Origin: a virus
Lineage: Duplodnaviria; Heunggongvirae; Uroviricota; Caudoviricetes
Virus record (IMG/VR): IMGVR_UViG_2660238346_000020
DNA length: 13,692 nt
Direction: 5' to 3' (one strand)
Each line of letters starts with the position of its first letter. The stretch's first letter is position 1. Positions 1-13,692 of this stretch are shown here, piece after piece. The position numbers and the translations under genes were made by a program. The notes below the pieces were generated by a model, which worked only from the letters and a program-made list of their open reading frames with translations, was not told where the DNA came from and made no database searches.

Positions 1-277
1 AGAACGCCTTATCCGGCCTACGGGAACAGTGCTTTTTGTGGGCCTGATAAGATGCGTTAAGCGTCGCATCAGGCATTATGGCGCAGTTGCCGGATGCGGC
101 GAGAACGCCTTATCCGGCCTACGGGAACAGTGCTTTTTGTGGGCCTGATAAGATGCGTTAAGCGTCGCATCAGGCATTATGGCGCAGTTGCCGGATGCGG
201 CATGAACGCCTTATCCGGCCTACGGGAACAGTGCTTTTTGTGGGCCTGATAAGACGCGTTAAGCGTCGCATCAGGCA
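1..277. repeat. Tandem REP/BIME-type repeats: about 2.7 copies of a ~101-bp unit (copies begin at 1, 102, 203), each containing two palindromic REP-like elements
   Basis: Direct: near-identical 101-bp units repeat at period 101, with point differences (gatgcg vs gacgcg; gagaacg vs catgaacg). Each unit holds the imperfect palindromes gcctgataagatgcgttaagcgtcgcatcaggc and gccggatgcggcg...cgccttatccggc, typical of E. coli REP sequences. The first copy may be cut by the window edge. Confidence 0.85.
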
Positions 278-283
278 ACAAAC

Positions 284-589
284 TCACGGGTGAGCCACAA
301 ACCGGGAAAGCCGCTGGCGCAGCAGGCGGTTTTCCTGCTTCAGGTGCGCAATATCATCCATTAACGTCAGCGCCACCGCGATCCCCGGCCAGTCCAGAGC
401 CAGTTCATGACGCAGGCGTACCGCGCGTTGCACCACAATGGCGGCATGGTCGTCAAATACCCAGGTTGTCTCCTGGATCTCACTCGGTTCAACCACCCCC
501 AAACCGACAATTTCATTCAACTCCTCTTCAGAGATGCCGGTATGCAGGCAAAATTCGGTAATAGTAAAAGTCACCGTAACATTAGCCAT
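284..589 (-). CDS. cbpM: CbpM, chaperone modulator of CbpA (101 aa)
   Basis: Translation [33 protein letters not shown]... matches CbpM as I recall it. ATG at 587-589 chosen over the upstream TTG of the listed ORF. Its ATG overlaps the cbpA stop (TAATG), the conserved cbpA-cbpM arrangement. Confidence 0.88.
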
Positions 590-1509
590 TATGCTTTCCC
601 CCAATCTTTACGTGGATCAAAAGACGACTGGGCGTCTGCCAGTTGCTGCCACAGCGCGGCAGTGTTTTCATCCGGTTTCGGCGGCATCACGATTTTCAGT
701 ACCGCATACAGATCGCCGGTCTGTTTTTTGCTCACCAGACCTTTGCCTTTAACGCGCAATCGTTGCCCGGCCTGGCTGCCAGGCGGGATAGTCAGCAAAA
801 TGCTTTCTTTCAGTGTTGGAACGGTGACTTTAGTACCCAGCGCCGCTTCCCACGGGCTAACCGGCACCACTATTTCCAGATCCTGGCCGACAATATCAAA
901 CAGCGGATGTGGCGCAATGTGAATCACCAGCCACAGGTCGCCATTTGGACCGCCGTTTTCGCCCGGCGTCCCCTGGCCTTTCAGGCGGATGCGTTGACCA
1001 TTGCCGACGCCCGCCGGGATCTTCACATTCAGCGTTTTCGGGATTTCCTGTTCGATCATGCCAAAGGCGTTATAAACCGGCAGGTTATAGCTGATGGTAC
1101 GCTTATGCTCAGTAAGCGTTTCTTCGAGGAATACCGCCACTTCGATTTCAATATCGTGGCCGCGTGTGGCGGGGCGTTGACGGCTCTGGCGGGCATGCTG
1201 ACCGAAAATTGACGAGAAGATATCGTCAAAATCTTCGGCGTTAAAACTCTGACCGTCGCCATGATGGAACTGACGGTTAAATTGCGGATCGTTGCGATGT
1301 TGCCACATCTGATCATACTCAGCGCGACGTTGTTCATCACTTAACACTTCCCAGGCTTCAGCGACCTCTTTGAAGCGGGCTTCGGCATCAGGTTCTTTGC
1401 TGACATCAGGATGGTATTTGCGGGCCAGTCGACGATAGGCGGTCTTGATTGTCTTGAGATCGTCCGTCGGTTTCACGCCCATGATGGCGTAATAATCCTT
1501 TAATTCCAT
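589..1509 (-). CDS. cbpA: Curved DNA-binding protein CbpA, DnaJ-family co-chaperone (306 aa)
   Basis: N-terminal J domain (DYYAIMGV...[32 protein letters not shown] with HPD motif) followed by DnaJ-like C-terminal domains; full-length ORF. Confidence 0.95.
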
Positions 1510-2043
1510 AGCGTTATCTCGCGTAAATCAACACAAATTGAAGGAACCCCTGTAAGGTAACTCCTATAAGTGTAGGGTAATCCTCAAAATTTCATATGCC
1601 AACACAGAATATGTTATTGAAATCATCGCGGAGGGGAGGTCGCCTCAAGGTGGGAGGAACATATTTTATTTACCTCACTCCTGAACTTTTGGCTCATGCT
1701 TACAAGTTAAACAATAAGGAAAGGAATGCACAACTCGACTATTTAAATCGTTATGCAATTTAATGATAAAGACATGTGCTAAAAACCATTTCTATTAGTC
1801 TCACATTCTTTTTTTATTGGTAATGGTAACGCCGCTGATTTTCTTTATAGCTACTGATGTAATCATTAGCGGCGTAAACGAGGCCGGGGCTAATCAGGCA
1901 TAGTTTGCGTCAAAACTTGCCTGTTTTTAAAGGGGAATATAGAAAAACAGGCGTTCAACGAGCCATTTTGCGAACCTGTTCCCGGAAAAATGACATATTT
2001 CTGTCACACTCTTTAATTATTGATAACAAAAGAGGTGTGAGGA
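1510..2043. promoter_or_regulatory. Divergent intergenic region that must carry the cbpA (leftward) and agp (rightward) promoters; AT-rich tract about 1690-1830
   Basis: Inference from divergent gene orientation and a 534-bp non-coding gap. No convincing -35/-10 pair identified by eye. agp has a good RBS (gaggtgtgagga before ATG 2044). Confidence 0.4.
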
Positions 2044-3285
2044 ATGAACAAAACGCTAATCGCCGCAACTGTAGCAGGGATAGTTTTACTCGCTTCAAAT
2101 GCTCAGGCACAAACCGTACCGGAAGGCTATCAGCTACAGCAAGTGCTCATGATGAGCCGCCATAACTTACGTGCGCCGCTGGCGAACAATGGCAGTGTGC
2201 TGGAGCAGTCGACGCCGAATAAATGGCCTGAATGGGACGTCCCCGGTGGGCAGCTCACCACTAAAGGGGGCGTGCTCGAAGTGTATATGGGCCATTATAT
2301 GCGTGAATGGCTGGCAGAACAGGGGATGGTGAAATCAGGGGAATGCCCGCCACCGGACACCGTTTATGCCTATGCCAATAGTCTGCAACGCACCGTCGCG
2401 ACCGCGCAGTTCTTTATTACTGGCGCATTCCCTGGGTGTGATATTCCTGTTCATCACCAGGAAAAAATGGGCACTATGGACCCCACCTTTAACCCAGTGA
2501 TCACCGATGATTCCGCCGCATTCAGTGAACAGGCGGTGGCGGCAATGGAGAAAGAGCTCAGCAAACTCCAGCTTACCGACAGCTACAAGCTACTGGAACA
2601 AATCGTTAACTATAAAGATTCTCCTGCGTGTAAAGAGAAGCAACAATGTTCGCTTGTAGATGGCAAAAATACCTTTAGCGCGAAGTATCAACAAGAACCG
2701 GGCGTTTCCGGGCCGCTGAAAGTCGGCAACTCGCTGGTAGATGCGTTTACTTTGCAATACTACGAAGGTTTTCCGATGGATCAGGTGGCCTGGGGAGAAA
2801 TCAAATCTGACCAGCAGTGGAAGGTGTTGTCGAAGCTGAAAAACGGTTACCAGGACAGCCTGTTTACCTCACCGGAAGTGGCGCGCAATGTTGCGAAACC
2901 GCTGGTCAGTTATATCGACAAAGCCCTGGTCACCGATCGCACCAGTGCACCGAAAATCACGGTATTAGTTGGGCACGACTCCAACATTGCCTCTCTGTTA
3001 ACGGCGCTGGATTTCAAACCGTATCAGTTGCATGACCAGAACGAACGCACGCCGATTGGCGGCAAAATCGTTTTCCAGCGTTGGCATGACAGCAAAGCCA
3101 ATCGCGACCTGATGAAAATTGAATATGTGTACCAGAGTGCGGAACAGTTACGTAATGCCGATGCGTTAACCCTGCAGGTACCTGCGCAGCGCGTGACGCT
3201 GGAATTAAGCGGTTGCCCGATAGATGCCAACGGTTTTTGCCCAATGGATAAGTTTGATAGCGTATTGAATGAAGCGGTGAAATAA
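2044..3285 (+). CDS. agp: Periplasmic glucose-1-phosphatase, histidine acid phosphatase family (413 aa)
   Basis: N-terminal signal peptide ([22 protein letters not shown]) and histidine acid phosphatase active-site motif RHNLRAP; full-length match to Agp as recalled. Confidence 0.95.
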
Positions 3286-3292
3286 CAGAAAA

Positions 3293-3315
3293 CTCCCCCG
3301 CGTGAAGCGGGGGAG
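3293..3315 (-). terminator. Stem-loop between convergent agp and yccJ; intrinsic terminator mainly for the minus-strand yccJ-wrbA transcript
   Basis: Direct: ctcccccgc (3293-3301), loop gtgaa, gcgggggag (3307-3315), a 9-bp GC-rich stem. On the minus strand the stem is followed by TTTTCTGTT; on the plus strand the trailing tract is less U-rich. Confidence 0.6.
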
Positions 3316-3322
3316 TCGCTGG

Positions 3323-3550
3323 TTAAACGTTTTTACGTTCGATGGTCTGTTCGCCCCAAAAAAGCGAATCTTTATCGGTCTTAGCAAAGGCTTTGACTAA
3401 CACTTCATCGCTACCTTCTTCCCAAATCTTTTCCGCCATTTTTTCGTCGTACCCGGCGACTTCGAAAATGGCCTCGGCTATTTCCGGCGACGTATTGCGC
3501 AGAGATGCCCATTCACCGACGTGATGAGCTTTCGCTTCTTGAGTTGGCAT
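3323..3550 (-). CDS. yccJ: YccJ, small conserved protein of unknown function (75 aa)
   Basis: Full-length [40 protein letters not shown]... with AGGAGG RBS, directly downstream of wrbA as in E. coli. Confidence 0.88.
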
Positions 3551-3570
3551 GCGTATCCTCCTGTTGAAGA

Positions 3571-4149
3571 TTAGCCGTTAAGTTTAACTGCCAGACCTGC
3601 GACATATTCCCCTTGATAACGAGCAATAGACAGTTCTTCCTGGCTGGGCTGGCGTGAACCGTCACCGCCTGCGATGGTGGTTGCGCCGTACGGCGTACCG
3701 CCGCGAACCTGTGAAACGTCAAATAATTCCTGCGCTGCGTAGCCAATGGGGACAATCACCATGCCGTGATGCGCAAGGGTCGTCCAGGTGGATGTGATGG
3801 TTTGTTCCTGACCGCCGCCAGTACCGGTGGAACTAAAGACGCTCGCCAGTTTTCCGTATAGTGCGCCGGAAGCCCACAGGCCGCCCGTCTGGTCGAGGAA
3901 GGTACGCATTTGACCGGACATGTTACCAAAGCGGGTAGGTGTACCAAAAATAATGGCGTCGTAATCGGCCAGTTCTTGCGGGGTTGCAACCGGTGCAGTT
4001 TGCGTTTTACCGCCTGCTTTTTCAAATAATTGCGGCGGCATGGTTTCCGGTACACGCTTAACGACAACTTCTGCGCCATCCACTTTGCTTGCACCCTCAG
4101 CAACTGCGCGTGCCATCGTTTCAACATGTCTAAGGATATGCTTTATCAT
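3571..4149 (-). CDS. wrbA: WrbA NAD(P)H:quinone oxidoreductase (flavodoxin-like) with a prophage-derived replacement N-terminus (192 aa)
   Basis: From [37 protein letters not shown]... to the C-terminus it reads as WrbA. The first residues MIKHILRHV replace the canonical MAKVLVLYYSMYGHI recalled for K-12, which contains the flavodoxin FMN phosphate-binding loop. The ORF is intact but the product is probably non-functional or altered. Confidence 0.8.
4112..4131. other. Approximate prophage/host junction (att core) inside the 5' end of wrbA
   Basis: Inference: the sequence leftward of about 4125 matches the recalled K-12 wrbA 5' coding sequence (ttgaaacgatggcacgcgcagttgctgagggtgc on the minus strand); rightward of about 4130 it diverges and runs straight into the integrase 3' end. 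Exact core limits need alignment to an uninterrupted wrbA. Confidence 0.5.
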
Positions 4150-5456
4150 TTTGAAAAATATAATTTTATTTCATCCTCCTGGTCACTTTGGGGCACGTCT
4201 GGGGCACGGGCATTAAGGACATTATTCAGCATAGCAACCTGAGTCACGCTGCACTCAGGCATCCATGCACCATAAACATTGTAGACCATGCTGGCGCTGG
4301 AGTGCCCCATCTGTGATGCAATAAATGTCGGGTTTGCTCCGGCAGATAAAGCCCAGCACGCATAAGTATGGCGTGACTGATATGCTTTCCGGGCTCTTAT
4401 ACCCGCTCTTTTCATTGCTGAGTCCCATGTTGCCCCGATGGAGCTTACCGCATAGTTAATACCCGCCTTGTGATTCTTGCGAACGATTTGCGGACAGAAA
4501 ACAAAAGTGCACTCGTGCAAAATTGTTCTTCCGTACTCGCGTAATTTAACGGTGATCTGATGCTGCCTGCCAAGACGAGTAAGCATCGCCTGGTTTTTAA
4601 GTGCTTCAATGGCTGGTGCCAGAAGATGTATAACCCGGTCGGTGCCAGCATCAGTCTTTGGTAGCGTAAAATCACCTATTTTTGTAAAATTTCTTCGCAC
4701 TGTTATCGTGCCAACTTTCAGGTCGATATCCTCCCATGCAAGTGCGGCAATTTCACCATGTCGCATCCCCGTAAAAACAGCCACTGTCCAGAGGTTTTTG
4801 GTCTGTTGATGATGACAGGCATCAATGAGGCGACCAAACTCCTCTCTGGTCAGTGGATCTGGCACAGGTTTTGATTTCCTCAGTGGTGTTATTGAATTAA
4901 ACGGGTTTTTCTCCAGATACCCGTTTTCAGCGGCAAAGCTGAACATCCCGGCAGTTGTTGTCATGTAATAGTTTACCGTGGGGACTGTTCTTCCTTTGTT
5001 GGTGGAAGTGTTTTTCCTGCTTTCCTTTTCCCCAGTCAGTAAATCTTTCCTGATGAACAGCAAATCCTCTTTTGTAATCGAGGATGCCAGTCTACCCACG
5101 CCAAGCCTCGGTAGCATATTTTTCATCACTGATTGATAACGATTTAAGGCGTTACTACTGATTTCCATTGCTTTCAGAGTAAGCCATTTCTGTGCCAGTT
5201 CACCGACGGTGATATCTTTTTTTACCAGGCCAAATAGCTTCAGGTTAGGTGAGTCAGGGAATCGCTCGGCATAATCAAACGTTCCTGTTCTGATTGCAAA
5301 GCAGACCGAAGCCCTTAACTCACCAGCGATCTTTCTGTTTTTCGGTGTATCGGGCACGCGAAGATTTTCGCGCACTCGTTTACCCCTGTACTTAAACGTT
5401 ATTCGGAGTTTTCCTCCGTGATTTTCAACGCCGGCTGGATAGGCTGAATTCGCCAT
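4146..5456 (-). CDS. int: Phage integrase, tyrosine site-specific recombinase (436 aa from the ATG at 5456)
   Basis: C-terminal catalytic region with the conserved recombinase residues ([11 protein letters not shown]; SRHTYACW...[13 protein letters not shown]). ATG at 5454-5456 has a strong AGGAGG RBS 4 nt upstream; the listed ORF extends 8 codons further to a GTG. The stop TGA overlaps the wrbA ATG. Confidence 0.9.
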
Positions 5457-5508
5457 TGTTCCTCCTGCGTCCAAGAGCACGCTCAGGTTATACTCTTATG
5501 GACAAGAA

Positions 5509-6137: not shown

Positions 6138-6813
6138 CTATCGCCATTGCTCCCCAAATACAAAACCAATTTCAGCCAGTGCCTCGTCCATTTTTTCGAT
6201 GAACTCCGGTACCATTTCGTCAAAAACCTCCATGTATTTTTCATCCCGTTCGACCACGACATAATGCAGGCCTTCACGCTTCATACGCGGGTCATAGTTG
6301 GCAAAGTACCAGGCATCTTTTCGCGTCACCCACATGCTGCACCTGGGCCATGTAAGCCGACTTTATGGCCTCGAAACCACCGAGCCGGAATTTCATGAAA
6401 TCCCGGGAGGTAAACGGGCATTTCAGTTCAAGGCCGTTGCCGTCACTGCATAAACCATCGGGAGAGCAGGCGGTGCGCATACTTTCGTCGCGATAGATGA
6501 TCGGGGATTCAGTAACATTCACGCCGGAAGTGAACTCAAAGAGGGCTCTGGCGTCGTTCTCGTACTGTTTTCCCCAGGCCAGCGCTTTAGCGTTAACTTC
6601 CGGAGCCACACCGGTGCAAACCTCAGCCAGCAGGGTGTGGAAGTAGGACATTTTCATGTCAGGCCATTTCTTTCCTGAGCGGGGTTTTGCTATCACGTTG
6701 TGAACTTCTGAAGCGGTGATGACGCCGAGCCGTAATTTGTGCCACGCATCATCCCCCTGTTCGACAGCTCTCACGTCGATCCCTGTACGTTGCAGGATAA
6801 TGTCCGGTGTCAT
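6138..6813 (-). pseudogene. exo: Lambda-type exonuclease (Red-alpha, exo) disrupted by a frameshift near 6335/6336
   Basis: ORF 6292..6813 encodes Exo residues [31 protein letters not shown]...SAYMAQVQ and then runs out of frame ([14 protein letters not shown]). ORF 6138..6335 in another frame encodes the Exo C-terminus [27 protein letters not shown]...[10 protein letters not shown]. Against lambda exo as recalled (..AQVQYSMWVTRK..), about 5 nt (tacag) are missing between cag and catg. Confidence 0.8.
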
Positions 6814-7600: not shown

Positions 7601-7897
7601 TTATACCTCTGAATCAATATTAATTTGGTGACGGGCGATGGTTTCAGCCATGTAGCGGATGTGTTCTGCCATGCGTTCCTGAAAATCGACATCGTCATCA
7701 AATGCACGGGAAATAGCTTTTTTGCTGGCCCCGTGACGTTGCAGATTATCGATGCATAGCGATTCAAACAGGTGTTGGGGCAGACCTTTTTCCAGGTCGT
7801 CTGCCAGCTCAGCTTCAGTTTCTTCACGGGCAATTTGCTGGTAGTGTCGTGCCCATGACTGCTCTTCAATGCGATCGGGGATAAGCCAGGCATTCAT
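7601..7897 (-). CDS. gam: Gam, RecBCD inhibitor (98 aa, GamS-length form)
   Basis: Matches lambda Gam (..[44 protein letters not shown]...[24 protein letters not shown]). Confidence 0.92.
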
Positions 7898-9033
7898 GAT
7901 TTATCACCTCCGAAATTTTCAAGCCTGTTGGCAATCATGATGGCGATATCAGGGATTGCTGGCGCTGTGGCTATACATGCGGGGTTGGCGCACAAACCAT
8001 AGACGGCGGCAATCACGAGCTGTCTTTTCCAGTCGAGAGTTACTGGCTCAGAATTGGCGTCATCGCCGGACGTATCACTGCCTGGCTCGTTCTGAACAAC
8101 GGTTTCGCCCTCCTGAGCGGCATCAACAGAGTTTTCCTGAATGATCTTCTCCTCAGTTTGTGCTGAGTCTTCTCCATCAGCGGCGTCATTTTCTCCAAAA
8201 GTTTCTGTGTAAGTGCTATCGCCCATTACCGCACTACAGTCAGGGCAGTTACCCCCGCCAGTCTGACCACAGACGCGGCAGTTTTTTTCCAGCTCCGGTT
8301 GCGCTACTGGCCCTGGCTGTTGCTCTTCTGGCCCGTTTTGTTGCGTATCCGGGCTGTTTTGTCCCGCTTCTGGGGCAATTTGTTCCACTTTGGACTGATT
8401 CTGGTCCTCAGTGTCGCGAGTCTGGATCCCCTTCACCCACTTCGGATCAGCAGGGTTACTGATGCCTTCAACGAATTCTCCACGCGAGGCAGCCAGTAAT
8501 TTGTCGGCATCGACTGGATTTTTTGGGGGGATGTTTTCCCTGGCTTTATTGAGTTCCTCCCTCAGTTCCTGGTATTTCGTTTCTACAGATGAGACATTTT
8601 CCAGTGATTGCGTGTCCTCATTATGTTTAACTGGAATTTCTTCCACTGATTCAGGCGCTGCCTGTTCATTAGCCATTGTGTCCGATGCTTGTTGCTTTTC
8701 TTCATCGCCATGTTTTCCTTCTGCTGTTCCGCGCTGCGGCATCGGTGCTGATGAGCGACCGCAGGCAATTTCCACGATTTCCGGATCCGGGTTAGCGTGA
8801 TCGGTTTCGGTCAACACTTTGTTGAGATATTCAGTCACGCGTGCCGGGATGGCCTCAATGCCGATTGGTGCTTCTTTCACGGAAGCCACCACAATGGCGC
8901 GGGAATAATCCAGCCCACCGGGCATGGCGATAAATTTGTCGCGAAAAACAGAAAAGGGCGGCTTATTCTCTGACACGATTTCTTCAACGCGTTTTGCGTG
9001 TGCTGGGTGCAGGTTATAAATATCCACATCCAT
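7894..9033 (-). CDS. Hypothetical phage accessory protein, 379 aa: N-terminal domain, long acidic/Gln/Pro-rich low-complexity region, CxxC-x7-CxxC zinc-ribbon-like motif, hydrophobic C-terminal segment
   Basis: Long ORF whose stop overlaps the gam ATG (ATGA), implying co-transcription and coupling. Motif [15 protein letters not shown] encoded at about 8230-8290. No recognisable family. The frame stays open a further 50 codons upstream (to 9183) with no start codon. Confidence 0.55.
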
Positions 9034-9249
9034 TGAACGGGCCAGAACGCCGGTGGCTACATCTCGTGCGAGTGATGTCTTATCATGTTTGAATCCTTCA
9101 CCACGATCGGTAATATTTCCGCCGCCAGCGTTAGCACCGGAAGGCGTACGGGTAATGCCTGAAACATAATTTCCGTAAAGCAGTCAGGACACTTACTTGC
9201 TCTTTTATGAACACTCTTTTATGAAAATTGAAACGGAGAATACTGCCAG

Positions 9250-10650
9250 ATGAGTCATCAGTGTTCACTTTCTGAACTGAATGAAAACCTGGTGCCTTTC
9301 ACTGCCAGGCAGATTAAGTCCTCATTAATCTGGTGTGCAGAGGATGTCAGAAATCCAGACGAGCTGCAAAATGCCTGCAGTTATATTATCGATCCTGGCA
9401 GTACAGCTTCTGCCAAAGTGTTCCATGCAGAGCGCTATGGTGGCAGTGGTATTCAGCGTAATGGAGGTGGTGCACGTTGTGGGTTTGATGGTAACTACCA
9501 GGTTAAAGGAATAGGAAGTAATCCGTTGGTTGGCGAAGGTACTGACGAACGTCATTCTAATGGTGCACTCGGCGCTGTTCATGCAATATATGAGGCTTTG
9601 TGGGGAGAAGTACTGGCTCAAATATTACCTTATAGTGCTGTGCGGGTTCGGGCGGTTTTACTTACAGATCTCTATACTGAAAAGGCATTTGAGCGCTCCG
9701 GTAGGAAATCACGAAGAGCCCTGTTGGTACGTGAGCCTGTTGTTCGCCCGGCGCATTTTGAACGGGCACCTTACTTCCAAGTAAAACCGGAGTATTCCAG
9801 TCAGTTAATTCACGATGCCTGTCGGGTTAGATCTGTGATCCACAAGCTGCCAGGATATCTACCTGTACCACCGGAAGAAATTGATGCTGAAGCACGAACT
9901 GATCCCCGGATTTATTGCATTGAGGGGTTATGTGAACTGGCACGTCGTGAGGCCTGGCAAATGGCATTTTGTCGAACACGTTTCCTGAGATTGACAACTT
10001 CTCCTTCTAATATTGCAATGGATGGCAGATTAATGGATTTTAACGGACTCAGTTGTCTGTTTCCGGGAGATTCCCCAGCTGATTTTGGGTATAAACTAAG
10101 ATTAGCTGAACTGGCAAAAGAACCGATGGTACTTATGCAAGGGCTGTCTGATCTCTGCTTGTATATCGGAAAATATATGTTTGACCCTGACTTCACTCTT
10201 GCAGCCCGTTTGAAGGTTGAGGAGATATTTCAGAAAACTTTTCATGAAGCATGTTATTACTGTTATCTAGAACTGTTGGGTATTCCTGGAGAATTTATAA
10301 CACAAAAAGAGATACCTGATATATTGAAAGAACTGGTTAACAGTTTTGTTGCATTACTCAATAAATACTGCGAGAAATCACATGCCCAAGATATTGTCAA
10401 TCAGGATGGTTCACCATTGCAAAAGTTGGTTGTGACGCTAATCCATCATAGGCATAATCAAAAGCAGGCACTGAATAGTAGCATCAAGAATGATGTTTAT
10501 TTCACCGTTGCACAACAGTGTTTTTCCCAGGCCATCCACTGGCTGACGCAAGGCAGTACCAGACGTCAGATAAATGCCTCATTACTCCTGAAAGAAATTG
10601 AACATCATACCATGAAAAGGCTGCAACCCAGGGAAGAGCTGAGGAAATAG
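9250..10650 (+). CDS. mchC: Microcin maturation protein, MchC/MceJ-like (466 aa); assignment by operon context
   Basis: Large ORF with SD (acggag) immediately upstream of the HlyC-family acyltransferase gene and the CvaA/CvaB-family exporter genes, the arrangement of siderophore-microcin (H47/M/E492) clusters. I cannot confirm homology from memory of the MchC sequence. Confidence 0.5.
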   Translation: MSHQCSLSELNENLVPFTARQIKSSLIWCAEDVRNPDELQNACSYIIDPGSTASAKVFHAERYGGSGIQRNGGGARCGFDGNYQVKGIGSNPLVGEGTDERHSNGALGAVHAIYEALWGEVLAQILPYSAVRVRAVLLTDLYTEKAFERSGRKSRRALLVREPVVRPAHFERAPYFQVKPEYSSQLIHDACRVRSVIHKLPGYLPVPPEEIDAEARTDPRIYCIEGLCELARREAWQMAFCRTRFLRLTTSPSNIAMDGRLMDFNGLSCLFPGDSPADFGYKLRLAELAKEPMVLMQGLSDLCLYIGKYMFDPDFTLAARLKVEEIFQKTFHEACYYCYLELLGIPGEFITQKEIPDILKELVNSFVALLNKYCEKSHAQDIVNQDGSPLQKLVVTLIHHRHNQKQALNSSIKNDVYFTVAQQCFSQAIHWLTQGSTRRQINASLLLKEIEHHTMKRLQPREELRK

Positions 10651-10653
10651 AAT

Positions 10654-10800
10654 ATGTGCGAAAAAATTGCCATCCTGCTGGATAATCATGGCGATGATCC
10701 CCTTTTTTTACAAGAAGCAATTTCTGATATGAAAAATTTTATGCTTAAGTTTTCCAGAGATGCATTTGGATATCTTGAACCGATAAGAAACACAGTGTAA
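10654..10800 (+). CDS. Unlisted 48-aa ORF between mchC-like and mchD-like genes (MCEKIAILLDNHGDDPLFLQEAISDMKNFMLKFSRDAFGYLEPIRNTV)
   Basis: Direct: ATG 3 nt after the mchC stop with GAGGAAA 7 nt upstream; ends 25 nt before the mchD ATG. Below the length cutoff of the ORF track. No double-glycine leader and no Gly/Ser-rich core, so it does not look like a microcin precursor. Confidence 0.3.
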   Translation: MCEKIAILLDNHGDDPLFLQEAISDMKNFMLKFSRDAFGYLEPIRNTV

Positions 10801-10825
10801 TAAATATATAAGGGAAATAGTAATC

Positions 10826-11278
10826 ATGTCTTATATAAGGGAAACCATCAGAGGAAAAGATGAATGGACTGTTTATGAACAGATCGGTTTTGCGGTCAGT
10901 TGTATGCTCTACAATCGTAATTACAGTCTGTATCCGGTGTTAACCATTCAATACTGGACTGAATATGCGATACAGCATAATCAGATTAAATTCCTGTTTG
11001 ATTCACGAGGTTTTCCACTGGCGTATATTACTTGGGCATATCTTGAGGCTGATACAGAAGCGCGCCTGCTCAGGGATCCAGAATTCAGGTTGCATCCGTC
11101 TGAATGGAATGAAGATGGAAGGATCTGGATTCTGGATTTCTGTTGTAAACCAGGCTTTGGTCGAAAAGTTATTGACTATCTCATACAGCTTCAGCCATGG
11201 GGAGAAGGAGAAGTACGATGGTTAAGCAGGCGAAAGAAAATTGTGACATACATCCCTGAGCGGCTGCATAAAACGTAG
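10826..11278 (+). CDS. mchD: HlyC/toxin-activating acyltransferase family protein, MchD/MceI-like microcin maturation factor (150 aa)
   Basis: Alignable by eye to HlyC: AIQHNQIKFLFDSRGFPLAYITWAYLEADTE vs HlyC [30 protein letters not shown], and WNEDGRIWILDFCCKPGFG vs W.SGDRKWFIDWIAPFG. No RTX toxin gene nearby, consistent with the microcin-type paralogue. Confidence 0.7.
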   Translation: MSYIRETIRGKDEWTVYEQIGFAVSCMLYNRNYSLYPVLTIQYWTEYAIQHNQIKFLFDSRGFPLAYITWAYLEADTEARLLRDPEFRLHPSEWNEDGRIWILDFCCKPGFGRKVIDYLIQLQPWGEGEVRWLSRRKKIVTYIPERLHKT

Positions 11279-11430
11279 TACCTCTGAAGATACAGAGATA
11301 ATTGTAAATTACGGGGTAAATGCATCGCTGATACTATTTTGACAGGACTCTGTATTTTCTGGCTTTGATTATAGCATTTCGGTTAACCAGTGAAGGTATT
11401 ACAGGAAAAGTGTGAGTAAGAGGAGCTATT

Positions 11431-12705
11431 TTGTTTCTTCAGGATGCTTTAGAAAACAGAAAAATGAAGTGGCAGGGACGGGCAATATTACTTCCCGGAA
11501 TACCACTATGGTTAATCATGCTGGGAAGCATAGTGTTTATTACGGCATTTCTGATGTTCATTATTGTTGGTACCTATAGCCGCCGTGTTAATGTCAGTGG
11601 TGAGGTCACAACCTGGCCAAGAGCTGTCAATATATATTCAGGTGTACAGGGATTTGTTGTCAGGCAGTTTGTTCATGAAGGACAGTTGATAAAAAAAGGG
11701 GATCCTGTTTATCTGATTGACATCAGTAAAAGTACACGTAGTGGTATTGTCACTGATAATCATCGTCGGGATATAGAAAACCAGCTGGTTCGTGTGGACA
11801 ACATTATTTCCCGTCTGGAAGAAAGTAAAAAAATAACGCTAGATACCCTGGAAAAACAACGCCTGCAATACACAGATGCGTTTCGTTGCTCATCAGATAT
11901 TATACAGCGTGCAGAGGAAGGGATAAAAATAATGAAAAACAATATGGAGAATTACAGAAACTATCAGACAAAAGGGCTGATTAATAAAGATCAGTTAACT
12001 AACCAGGTGGCATTATATTATCAGCAACAAAACAATCTTCTTAGCCTGAGCGGACAGAACGAACAGAATGCCCTGCAGATAACCACTCTGGAGAGTCAGA
12101 TTCAAACTCAGGCAGCAGATTTTGATAACCGTATCTACCAGATGGAACTGCAACGGTACGAGTTACAGAAAGAACTGGTTAACACTGATGTGGAGGGCGA
12201 AATCATTATCCGGGCGTTGACTGACGGGAAAGTTGACTCCCTGAGTGTCACTGTCGGGCAAATGGTCAATACCGGAGACAGCCTTCTGCAGGTTATTCCT
12301 GAGAACATTGAAAATTATTATCTTATTCTCTGGGTCCCGAATGATGCTGTTCCTTATATTTCGGCTGGTGACAAAGTGAATATTCGTTATGAAGCCTTTC
12401 CGGCAGAAAAATTTGGGCAGTTCTCTGCTACGGTTAAAACTATATCCAGGACTCCTGCGTCAACACAGGAAATGTTGACCTATAAGGGAGCACCACAGAA
12501 TACGCCGGGCGCCTCTGTTCCCTGGTATAAAGTCATTGCGATGCCTGAAAAGCAGATTATCAGATATGGCGAAAAATACCTCCCTCTGGAAAATGGAATG
12601 AAAGCCGAAAGTACACTATTTCTGGAAAAAAGGCGTATTTACCAGTGGATGCTTTCTCCTTTCTATGACATGAAACACAGTGCAACAGGACCGCTCAATG
12701 ACTAA
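11431..12705 (+). CDS. mchE: CvaA/MchE-family membrane fusion protein (HlyD family) of the microcin type I secretion system (424 aa from the TTG start)
   Basis: Near-identical to CvaA as recalled (M F . [56 protein letters not shown]...). N-terminal TM helix then coiled-coil periplasmic domain. AGGAG RBS 6 nt before the TTG. The 3' end overlaps the mchF ATG by 8 nt. Confidence 0.9.
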
Positions 12706-13471
12706 CGGGAATTTCAGACAAATTATAAATCAGCTTGATATGCGCTGGCGACGTCGTGTTCCGGTTATTCATCAGACGGAGACCGCTGAATGTGGACTGG
12801 CCTGCCTGGCAATGATATGCGGTCATTTTGGTAAGAATATTGACCTGATATCTCTTCGCCGGAAGTTTAATCTCTCGGCCCGTGGAGCAAACCTTGCAGG
12901 AATCAATGGAATAGCGGAGCAGCTGGGGATGGTCACCCGGGCTCTTTCACTGGAGCTGAATGAGCTTGGTGCCCTCAAAATGCCGTGTATTCTCCACTGG
13001 GATTTCAGTCACTTCGTCGTGCTGGTCAGCGTAAAGCGTAACCGTTATGTACTGCATGATCCGGCCAGAGGCAGAAGATATCTCGGTCGGGAGGAAATGA
13101 GCCGGTATTTTACGGGCATTGCACTGGAGGTCTGGCCCGGAAGTGAATTCCAGGCGGAAACCCAGCAGACCCGCATAAGTCTCCGTTCACTGATTAACAG
13201 TATTTACGGTATTAAAAGAACACTGGCGAAAATTTTCTGTCTGTCAGTTGTAATTGAAGCAATCAATCTGGTAATGCCGGTGGGGACTCAGCTGGTTATG
13301 GATCATGCGATTCCGGCGGGGGACAGAGGGCTGCTGACGCTTATTTCTGCTGGCCTTATGTTCTTTATATTGCTCAAGGCCGCGGTGAGTATGCTGCGTG
13401 CATGGTCCTCACTAGTTATGAGCACGCTCATCAATGTACAGTGGCAGTCGGTGATGCTGCCAACTTACTGA
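12698..13471 (+). pseudogene. mchF: CvaB/MchF-family bacteriocin ABC transporter, 5' fragment only: C39 peptidase domain and first TM region (about 251 native codons), truncated by IS1
   Basis: [50 protein letters not shown]... (C39 catalytic Cys in ECGLAC and His in HFVVL) matches CvaB through ...LINVQWQS. From 13450 the frame reads IS1 terminal sequence (VMLPTY*). Transmembrane and ATPase domains are absent from the window. Confidence 0.88.
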
Positions 13472-13692
13472 TTTAGTGTATGATGGTGTTTTTGAGGTGC
13501 TCCAGTGGCTTCTGTTTCTATCAGCTGTCCCTCCTGTTCAGCTACTGACGGGGTGGTGCGTAACGGCAAAAGCACCGCCGGACATCAGCGCTATCTCTGC
13601 TCTCACTGCCGTAAAACATGGCAACTGCAGTTCAATTACACCGCTTCTCAACCTGGTACGCACCAGAAAAGCATTGATATGGCCATGAATGG
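13450..13692 (+). mobile_element. IS1 insertion sequence, left end with terminal inverted repeat; continues beyond the window
   Basis: Direct: GGTGATGCTGCCAACTTACTGATTTAGTGTATGATGGTGTTTTTGAGGTGCTCCAGTGGCTTCTGTTTCTATCAGCTG is the canonical IS1 terminus and insA upstream region. Confidence 0.92.
13505..13692 (+). CDS. insA: IS1 InsA (partial, runs off window end); GTG start
   Basis: Translation [63 protein letters not shown] matches InsA, with two substitutions against the variant I recall. Not in the ORF track because no stop lies within the window; the listed ORF 13476..13688 is in a different frame. Confidence 0.88.

Follow-up and report, generated by a model that had tools for sequence, protein, structure and literature searches.

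The microcin H47/microcin M genomic island of Escherichia coli is well known, and the island, its genes, the roles of those genes and its truncated or degenerate forms have all been published already. In an intact island glycosylated enterobactin is coupled to the precursor at its Ser/Gly-rich C-terminus by MchC and MchD, which are homologous to MceJ and MceI (PMC7472721). According to the literature, the precursors that receive the glucosylated enterobactin derivative are MchB and McmA, and the leader is of the double-glycine type. MchF has an N-terminal protease domain that cleaves off the leader, and it exports the product in concert with MchE and TolC (PMC7472721). Deletion of either mchCD or mchEF in E. 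coli Nissle 1917 abolishes antagonism, which complementation restores (PMC6776366). Here we compare with these systems a stretch of 13,692 nt from a virus record (IMG/VR IMGVR_UViG_2660238346_000020, Caudoviricetes; the whole stretch is referred to as the window), in which positions 9178-13449 are very probably a decaying fragment of the H47/M island that carries mchC, mchD, mchE and mchF, the first and last of these being cut short.

Three described systems stand closest to the block. The 5'-truncated H47/M island of strains Nissle 1917, CFT073 and ABU83972, represented here by E. coli 95-3322 (L001), has the same mchC-D-E-F order and overlaps as the window at 99.9% DNA identity, and also shares an upstream ISEc16-type IS3 element, mchS3, mchI and mchB with the sister contigs of the window. 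The window itself is unlike it in having a nonsense mutation in mchC (E467*), an mchF that is cut by IS1 at codon 251, and neither mchI/mchB nor mcmA in view. Decay of the island is already documented from the uropathogenic E. coli (UPEC) strain 536, whose degenerate microcin island is a remnant with a truncated mchF and export judged lost, although this strain retains the precursor and immunity genes of MccM beside truncated mcmM and mchF, whereas the window keeps maturation genes and mchE (PMC7472721). The microcin E492 genes mceJ/mceI/mceH/mceG of Klebsiella pneumoniae RYC492 have homologous functions, the likeness being one of published function: MceJ-MceI join glycosylated enterobactin onto the C-terminal end of the precursor, and export is the task of MceH-MceG (PMC7472721, PMC6071977), but this system belongs to another species and another island.

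Comparison with the reference island

Over positions 9178-13451 the window is fully colinear with mchC-mchD-mchE-mchF of 95-3322, with 6 differences in 4274 nt (99.9% DNA identity). A megablast search with positions 9000-13692 as query showed that the block 9178-13451 is carried by ca. 293 of 5426 complete E. coli genomes, and in the matching genomes its genes are annotated as MchC or hypothetical protein, toxin-activating lysine-acyltransferase, HlyD family secretion protein, and mchF microcin export peptidase/ABC transporter. Complete islands have the gene order mchS3, mchI, mchB, mchC, mchD, mchE, mchF, mcmA, and in some of them (L002) a glycosyltransferase and an esterase gene sit further upstream. 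Four co-directional open-reading frames (ORFs) lie in the block, at 9250-10650 (466 aa), 10826-11278 (150 aa), 11431-12705 (424 aa, TTG start) and 12680/12698-13471, exactly where an earlier model annotation made from the letters of the window (the sequence-only reading) had placed four such genes. In front of them stand the final 72 nt of the native mchB-mchC intergenic region (9178-9249, plus strand), colinear with L001 12001-12072.

Two of the four genes are intact. The first, mchD (10826-11278, plus strand), adjoins mchC and encodes an HlyC-family acyltransferase homologous to MceI that is 100% identical to the reference MchD (Pfam PF02794, E 2.4e-11). The second, mchE (11431-12705, plus strand), encodes an HlyD/CvaA-type membrane fusion protein which matches HlyD-family profiles and is 99.8% identical to the reference MchE over 424 aa. 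The sequence-only reading had recognised the 150-aa product as an HlyC-family acyltransferase and had assigned the genes to the class IIb microcin mchCDEF family; the Pfam match bears out the former, and the latter agrees both with the near-identical RefSeq loci and with the 99%-identical protein cluster into which the 466-aa protein falls, and which the National Center for Biotechnology Information (NCBI) names 'MchC protein'. Its description of overlapping CvaA- and CvaB-family exporter genes was right as to the HlyD-type 424-aa protein, the C39 start of the next gene and their overlap, which is 8 nt between mchE and mchF, but the CvaB-family gene is present only as codons 1-251 of 698. Its estimate of a GC content 10-20 points below the host genes was too high: the block (9178-13449) has 43.6% GC, the host genes (1-4149) 50.9% and the prophage 49.3%, a deficit of ca. 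7 points on average that reaches 13 points only in the 38% GC stretch at 10001-11000. A scan of the block for promoters and terminators returned sites no more numerous than in shuffled sequence and was not used.

A nonsense mutation in mchC

The mchC gene (9250-10650, plus strand) encodes a nonsense-cut maturation protein with a predicted SelO/YdiU fold, a homologue of MceJ that is 99.6% identical to the 516-aa MchC. Position 10648 is T in the window and G in both references (G10648T), and the codon GAG (Glu467) has become TAG at 10648-10650. The reference protein of 516 aa ends at window position 10800, and the remainder of the frame, codons 468-516 and the stop codon, lies untranslated at 10651-10800 (plus strand), in frame with 9250 and colinear with the end of the reference gene (L001 13623); a 48-aa ORF at 10654-10800 is the same frame continued. 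The 466-aa gene that the earlier annotation had set before the acyltransferase is therefore an MchC orthologue but not the full gene, and instead of a full-length MchC/MceJ-type maturation protein (~516 aa) the window encodes one that stops at codon 467. None of the 293 mchC-carrying complete E. coli genomes has the E467* allele, and a 61-nt probe centred on the site matched all 294 mchC-carrying records with one mismatch (98.4%) and none of them exactly; the allele is rare and confined to one decaying lineage.

The 466-aa protein has no Pfam or NCBIfam profile match, and the closest MchC homologues found outside E. coli are 57-75% identical. An AlphaFold model of MchC (28 homologues; pLDDT 82, pTM 0.87) matched YdiU/SelO structures in Foldseek searches (E 1.6e-11 to 1.3e-09, probability 1.0, TM 0.57-0.63). 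At the level of fold, the model gives MchC a SelO-type pseudokinase architecture, and the match confirms the earlier prediction that MchC is a distant relative of SelO (PMC3281104). The modelled fold is shared with the AMPylating/UMPylating pseudokinases SelO/YdiU (PDB 6EAC, 6K20, 6LNA), yet sequence identity to these is only 12-15%, and MchC acts with an HlyC-like partner on a peptide C-terminus. What E467* removes is the last 50 residues, comprising helices 466-480 and 484-506 (pLDDT 88-95) with the invariant I473, a C-terminal segment that is kept in 28 of 28 aligned MchC homologues of ~500-520 aa each.

Interruption of mchF by IS1

The second cut gene, mchF' (12698-13449, plus strand), holds codons 1-251 of 698, and its product is 100% identical to MchF residues 1-251. 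Identity to mchF stops at 13449-13451, where the IS1 terminal repeat GGTGATGCTGCCAACTTACTGAT starts; the left end of IS1 (13450-13692, plus strand), with the inverted repeat GGTGATGCTGCC... and the start of insA, was read directly from the sequence and leaves the window at its edge. Matching regions are annotated as IS1A-family transposase, and a sister contig has a Zn_ribbon_InsA ORF. The mchF' frame runs six codons into IS1 to a stop at 13471, giving a 257-aa MchF'-IS1 fusion product, in which Pfam finds a Peptidase_C39 domain at residues 21-149 (E 1e-40) and, of ABC_membrane, only profile positions 4-78 of 274. MchF residues 252-698 are absent, and with them the whole ATPase domain and most of the membrane domain; an ABC exporter of the MchF/CvaB type, with C39, membrane and ATPase parts, is not encoded here. 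Because IS1 interrupts mchF after codon 251, the locus cannot export a microcin.

The mchF::IS1 junction or the 257-aa fusion product was found in at least 24 contigs from isolates and metagenomes, while all 5426 complete E. coli genomes lack the mchF|IS1 junction. A search for the reciprocal junction between the right end of IS1 and mchF, as a test for a simple IS1 insertion, returned no matches.

The locus thus carries two lesions, the nonsense mutation that cuts MchC and the interruption of mchF; export is lost, and microcin maturation is probably lost as well. Screens that score the presence of mchC/mchF as "microcin H47 positive" would miscall such a lineage, in which an mchC nonsense mutation and mchF::IS1 are joined in some members by a frameshift in mchE. 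Beyond this the locus carries little biological weight.

Sister contigs and the junction with the prophage

Within the window the partner genes of the cluster are missing, as the sequence-only reading had noted. Searches by tblastn with MchB, MchI, McmA, MchS3 and the island glycosyltransferase and esterase gave only noise in the window, and a six-frame regular-expression scan of the window for double-glycine leaders gave only spurious matches, inside wrbA and antisense to IS1. There is in the window no precursor gene (mchB/mcmA, or any double-glycine leader followed by a Ser/Gly-rich C-terminus), no immunity gene (mchI/mcmI, with no tblastn match to MchI), and, within this one window, no glycosyltransferase or esterase gene (mchA/mcmL, mchS1/mcmK; queries from L002).

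Related contigs present a different picture. An exact look-up of the 466-aa product retrieved 12 contigs, each shorter than 20 kb, and single-nucleotide polymorphisms (SNPs) divide the lineage into two sublineages, that of the window being represented by fragmented drafts only. In three contigs (L011, L012, L013) E467* and mchF::IS1 occur together with mchS3, mchI and mchB upstream in native order, each 100% identical to the reference proteins, and mchI and mchB thus stand directly upstream of mchC in contigs of the sister sublineage that carry both lesions. Further decay is visible in this sister sublineage, where a 1-nt deletion at window-equivalent position 12239 divides mchE into ORFs of 270 and 147 aa (L011, L013, L014). 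Two metagenome contigs of this sublineage (L015, L017) have island sequence only from window-equivalent position 10956 onward, a point within mchD. Before it stands an element with an IS3-family HTH_Tnp_1 ORF, which points to an IS inserted in mchD in part of the lineage.

In the window, by contrast, the island sequence abuts a truncated recE (exodeoxyribonuclease VIII; 7894-9176, minus strand; NCBIfam NF007259 profile positions 288-598 of 877) that belongs to the lambdoid prophage at wrbA. This recE' comprises the 3' two-thirds of the gene and lacks ca. 790 nt of its 5' part, and it is 100% DNA-identical to recE of complete genomes as far as 9176, with no identity past that position. The join itself (9170-9182) is doubtful. 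A sister contig, CDRO01000207.1 (L003), has unresolved bases NNNNCGNNN exactly at the join: its sequence there is CATAA-NNNNCGNNN-CTGTCAGG, against CATAA-TTTCCGTAAAG-CAGTCAGG in the window. This contig lacks 2 nt relative to the window at this point and has the native T at 9182. The window bases 9177 and 9182 match neither parent, and both lie within 6 nt of the join. When the unresolved pattern of CDRO01000207.1 is set against an overlay of native recE and island sequence, eight of nine positions fit, the sole agreeing position being one of the two resolved bases, a fit with a chance of ca. 2 in 9 and suggestive only.

Among the contigs shown, the recE join is common to the window and CDRO01000207.1 only. 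The 5426 complete E. coli genomes do not contain the recE|mchC junction, and exact and flexible junction patterns gave no match in species-representative genome contigs or in JGI metagenome contigs. When the truncated RecE' product was looked up by exact protein match for more copies of the join, nothing emerged but the sister contig and unrelated contexts. Native sequence is instead what siblings of the window have at this place: upstream of 9178, five contigs of the same sublineage retain 9-74 nt of island sequence. One of the five (L007) is a second contig of the sister assembly and spans 9178-11126, and the others come from four additional assemblies, which match the mch sequence of the window exactly and keep native upstream sequence for 28-74 nt. 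Contigs of the sublineage end at variable points in AT-rich stretches, upstream of mchC and around 10700-11300, which fits coverage drop-out and not a repeat boundary. Since the join bases are discordant or unresolved and sibling contigs have native upstream sequence, we regard the recE-mchC adjacency as low in confidence and probably an artefact of assembly.

The absence of precursor and immunity genes from the window is, on balance, most likely an artefact of this weak contig join at 9176-9178 and not biology. The same twice-damaged allele stands directly downstream of intact mchI-mchB in other samples. This also qualifies the sequence-only reading, which had called the cluster an orphan and had seen the prophage remnant in the place of the precursor genes: the absence of partner genes is correct for the window, but the orphan status is not secure, as contigs with both lesions carry mchI and mchB upstream, and the place of the prophage remnant rests on a join that is unresolved in the sister public assembly. 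That reading had named a precursor and immunity pair just outside the window on the IS1 side as a finding that would refute it; the sister contigs come near to this, with such a pair next to the cluster, although on the upstream side. Caution is due with draft contigs, where a weak join in an AT-rich coverage gap can give rise to an odd gene neighbourhood.

Several points weigh against this account of decay and misassembly. The recE-mchC adjacency is present in two assemblies, within 2 nt, which indicates some read support and not a random chimera, and the join was judged from assembled contigs. No contig of the window's sublineage extends more than 74 nt upstream of 9178, and we infer the presence of mchB in that sublineage from the sister sublineage. 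All contigs end in IS1, leaving the remainder of mchF and mcmA beyond view. Finally, the loss of MchC maturation activity through E467* is probable, as judged from conservation and the structure model.

Were the recE|mchC junction real, illegitimate recombination or a deletion would have joined the island to the wrbA prophage, removing mchI, mchB and what lies upstream and leaving a true orphan remnant, non-functional as well; we consider this possible but doubtful. The same two segments are adjacent in both assemblies, the prophage is otherwise decayed (a 5-nt deletion in exo, a truncated recE), and the island lineage gathers lesions, such as the mchE frameshift and the IS abutting mchD in sister contigs, all of which a real junction would suit. 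Yet the two assemblies disagree at the junction or leave its bases unresolved, L007 of the sister assembly has native upstream sequence, the junction is absent from every other sample, complete genome and metagenome contig searched, and the breakpoint lies in the place where contigs from other assemblies of the sublineage simply end. If real, the join would be one more deletion or rearrangement in the same process of decay, and the orphan appearance of the cluster is either an assembly artefact or a further deletion in a decaying locus. It is improbable that the junction is real and that mchC'-mchD-mchE-mchF'::IS1 sits inside the wrbA lambdoid prophage as phage-associated cargo, or that mchD/mchE are kept for a non-canonical role.

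An IS1-mediated deletion or inversion was considered as the source of the left junction and rejected, there being no IS end at that junction. In a sibling assembly (GCA_000947375.1, contig CDRA01000722.1; L006) a patchwork at positions 1-464, with a phage head-fibre piece at 136-308 and others, is joined to the island 28 nt upstream of window position 9178; no complete E. coli genome has these pieces side by side, and the sequence looks like a chimeric contig.

Alternative functions of the locus

The sequence-only reading had left the choice between a remnant and a trans-acting module, and of these the remnant stands. A working maturation and export module, serving a precursor encoded elsewhere in the genome, could draw on the intact mchD and mchE and on the precedent of truncated islands that use IroB and ClbP encoded elsewhere (PMC6776366, PMC7472721). 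Such a module is nonetheless very hard to credit, as MchF without residues 252-698 has no ATPase domain and little of its membrane domain, MchC is cut in a conserved, structured region with its last 50 residues gone, mchEF and mchCD deletions each abolish activity (PMC6776366), and the nonsense allele is rare and restricted to a decaying lineage. That the HlyC-like and exporter genes belong to another system altogether, in RTX toxin activation and secretion or colicin V export, would rest on generic family matches (Pfam HlyC, HlyD and C39 ABC profiles) and can be dismissed, being refuted by 99.9% DNA identity to the mch island over the whole block, with neither a cvaC/cvi gene in the window nor any ORF for an RTX structural gene beside the HlyC-like gene, as in operons of the hlyCABD type.

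Prophage and host genes around the island sequence

The host genes in the window are E. coli-like. The lambdoid prophage lies at wrbA (3571-5480), its int gene (4146-5480, minus strand) overlapping the end of a 192-aa WrbA-like ORF, and its arm carries int, xis-like, DUF4222, exo, bet, gam and recE' genes. In comparison with the same prophage in E. coli EC2 (L019), a 5-nt deletion at 6336/6337 leaves the lambda-type exonuclease gene in two pieces, with ORFs of 65 and 173 aa, which indicates that the recombination module of the prophage is itself decaying. An unrelated metagenome scaffold (L021, 93-2175) has the same recE split into ORFs of 320 and 379 aa, and a frameshift in an otherwise complete recE can thus also give rise to the 379-aa product of the window.

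On the host side, the full-coverage complete-genome matches listed are ~1.27 kb longer than the window at 1510-2043 and carry an annotated yccE in that interval; between cbpA and agp the window seems to have no yccE but an AT-rich (38% GC) spacer. The left end of the window (1-277), upstream of cbpM/cbpA, consists of a 101-nt unit in 2.7 tandem copies with 98% matches, in which motifs like repetitive extragenic palindromes (REP) can be seen by eye.

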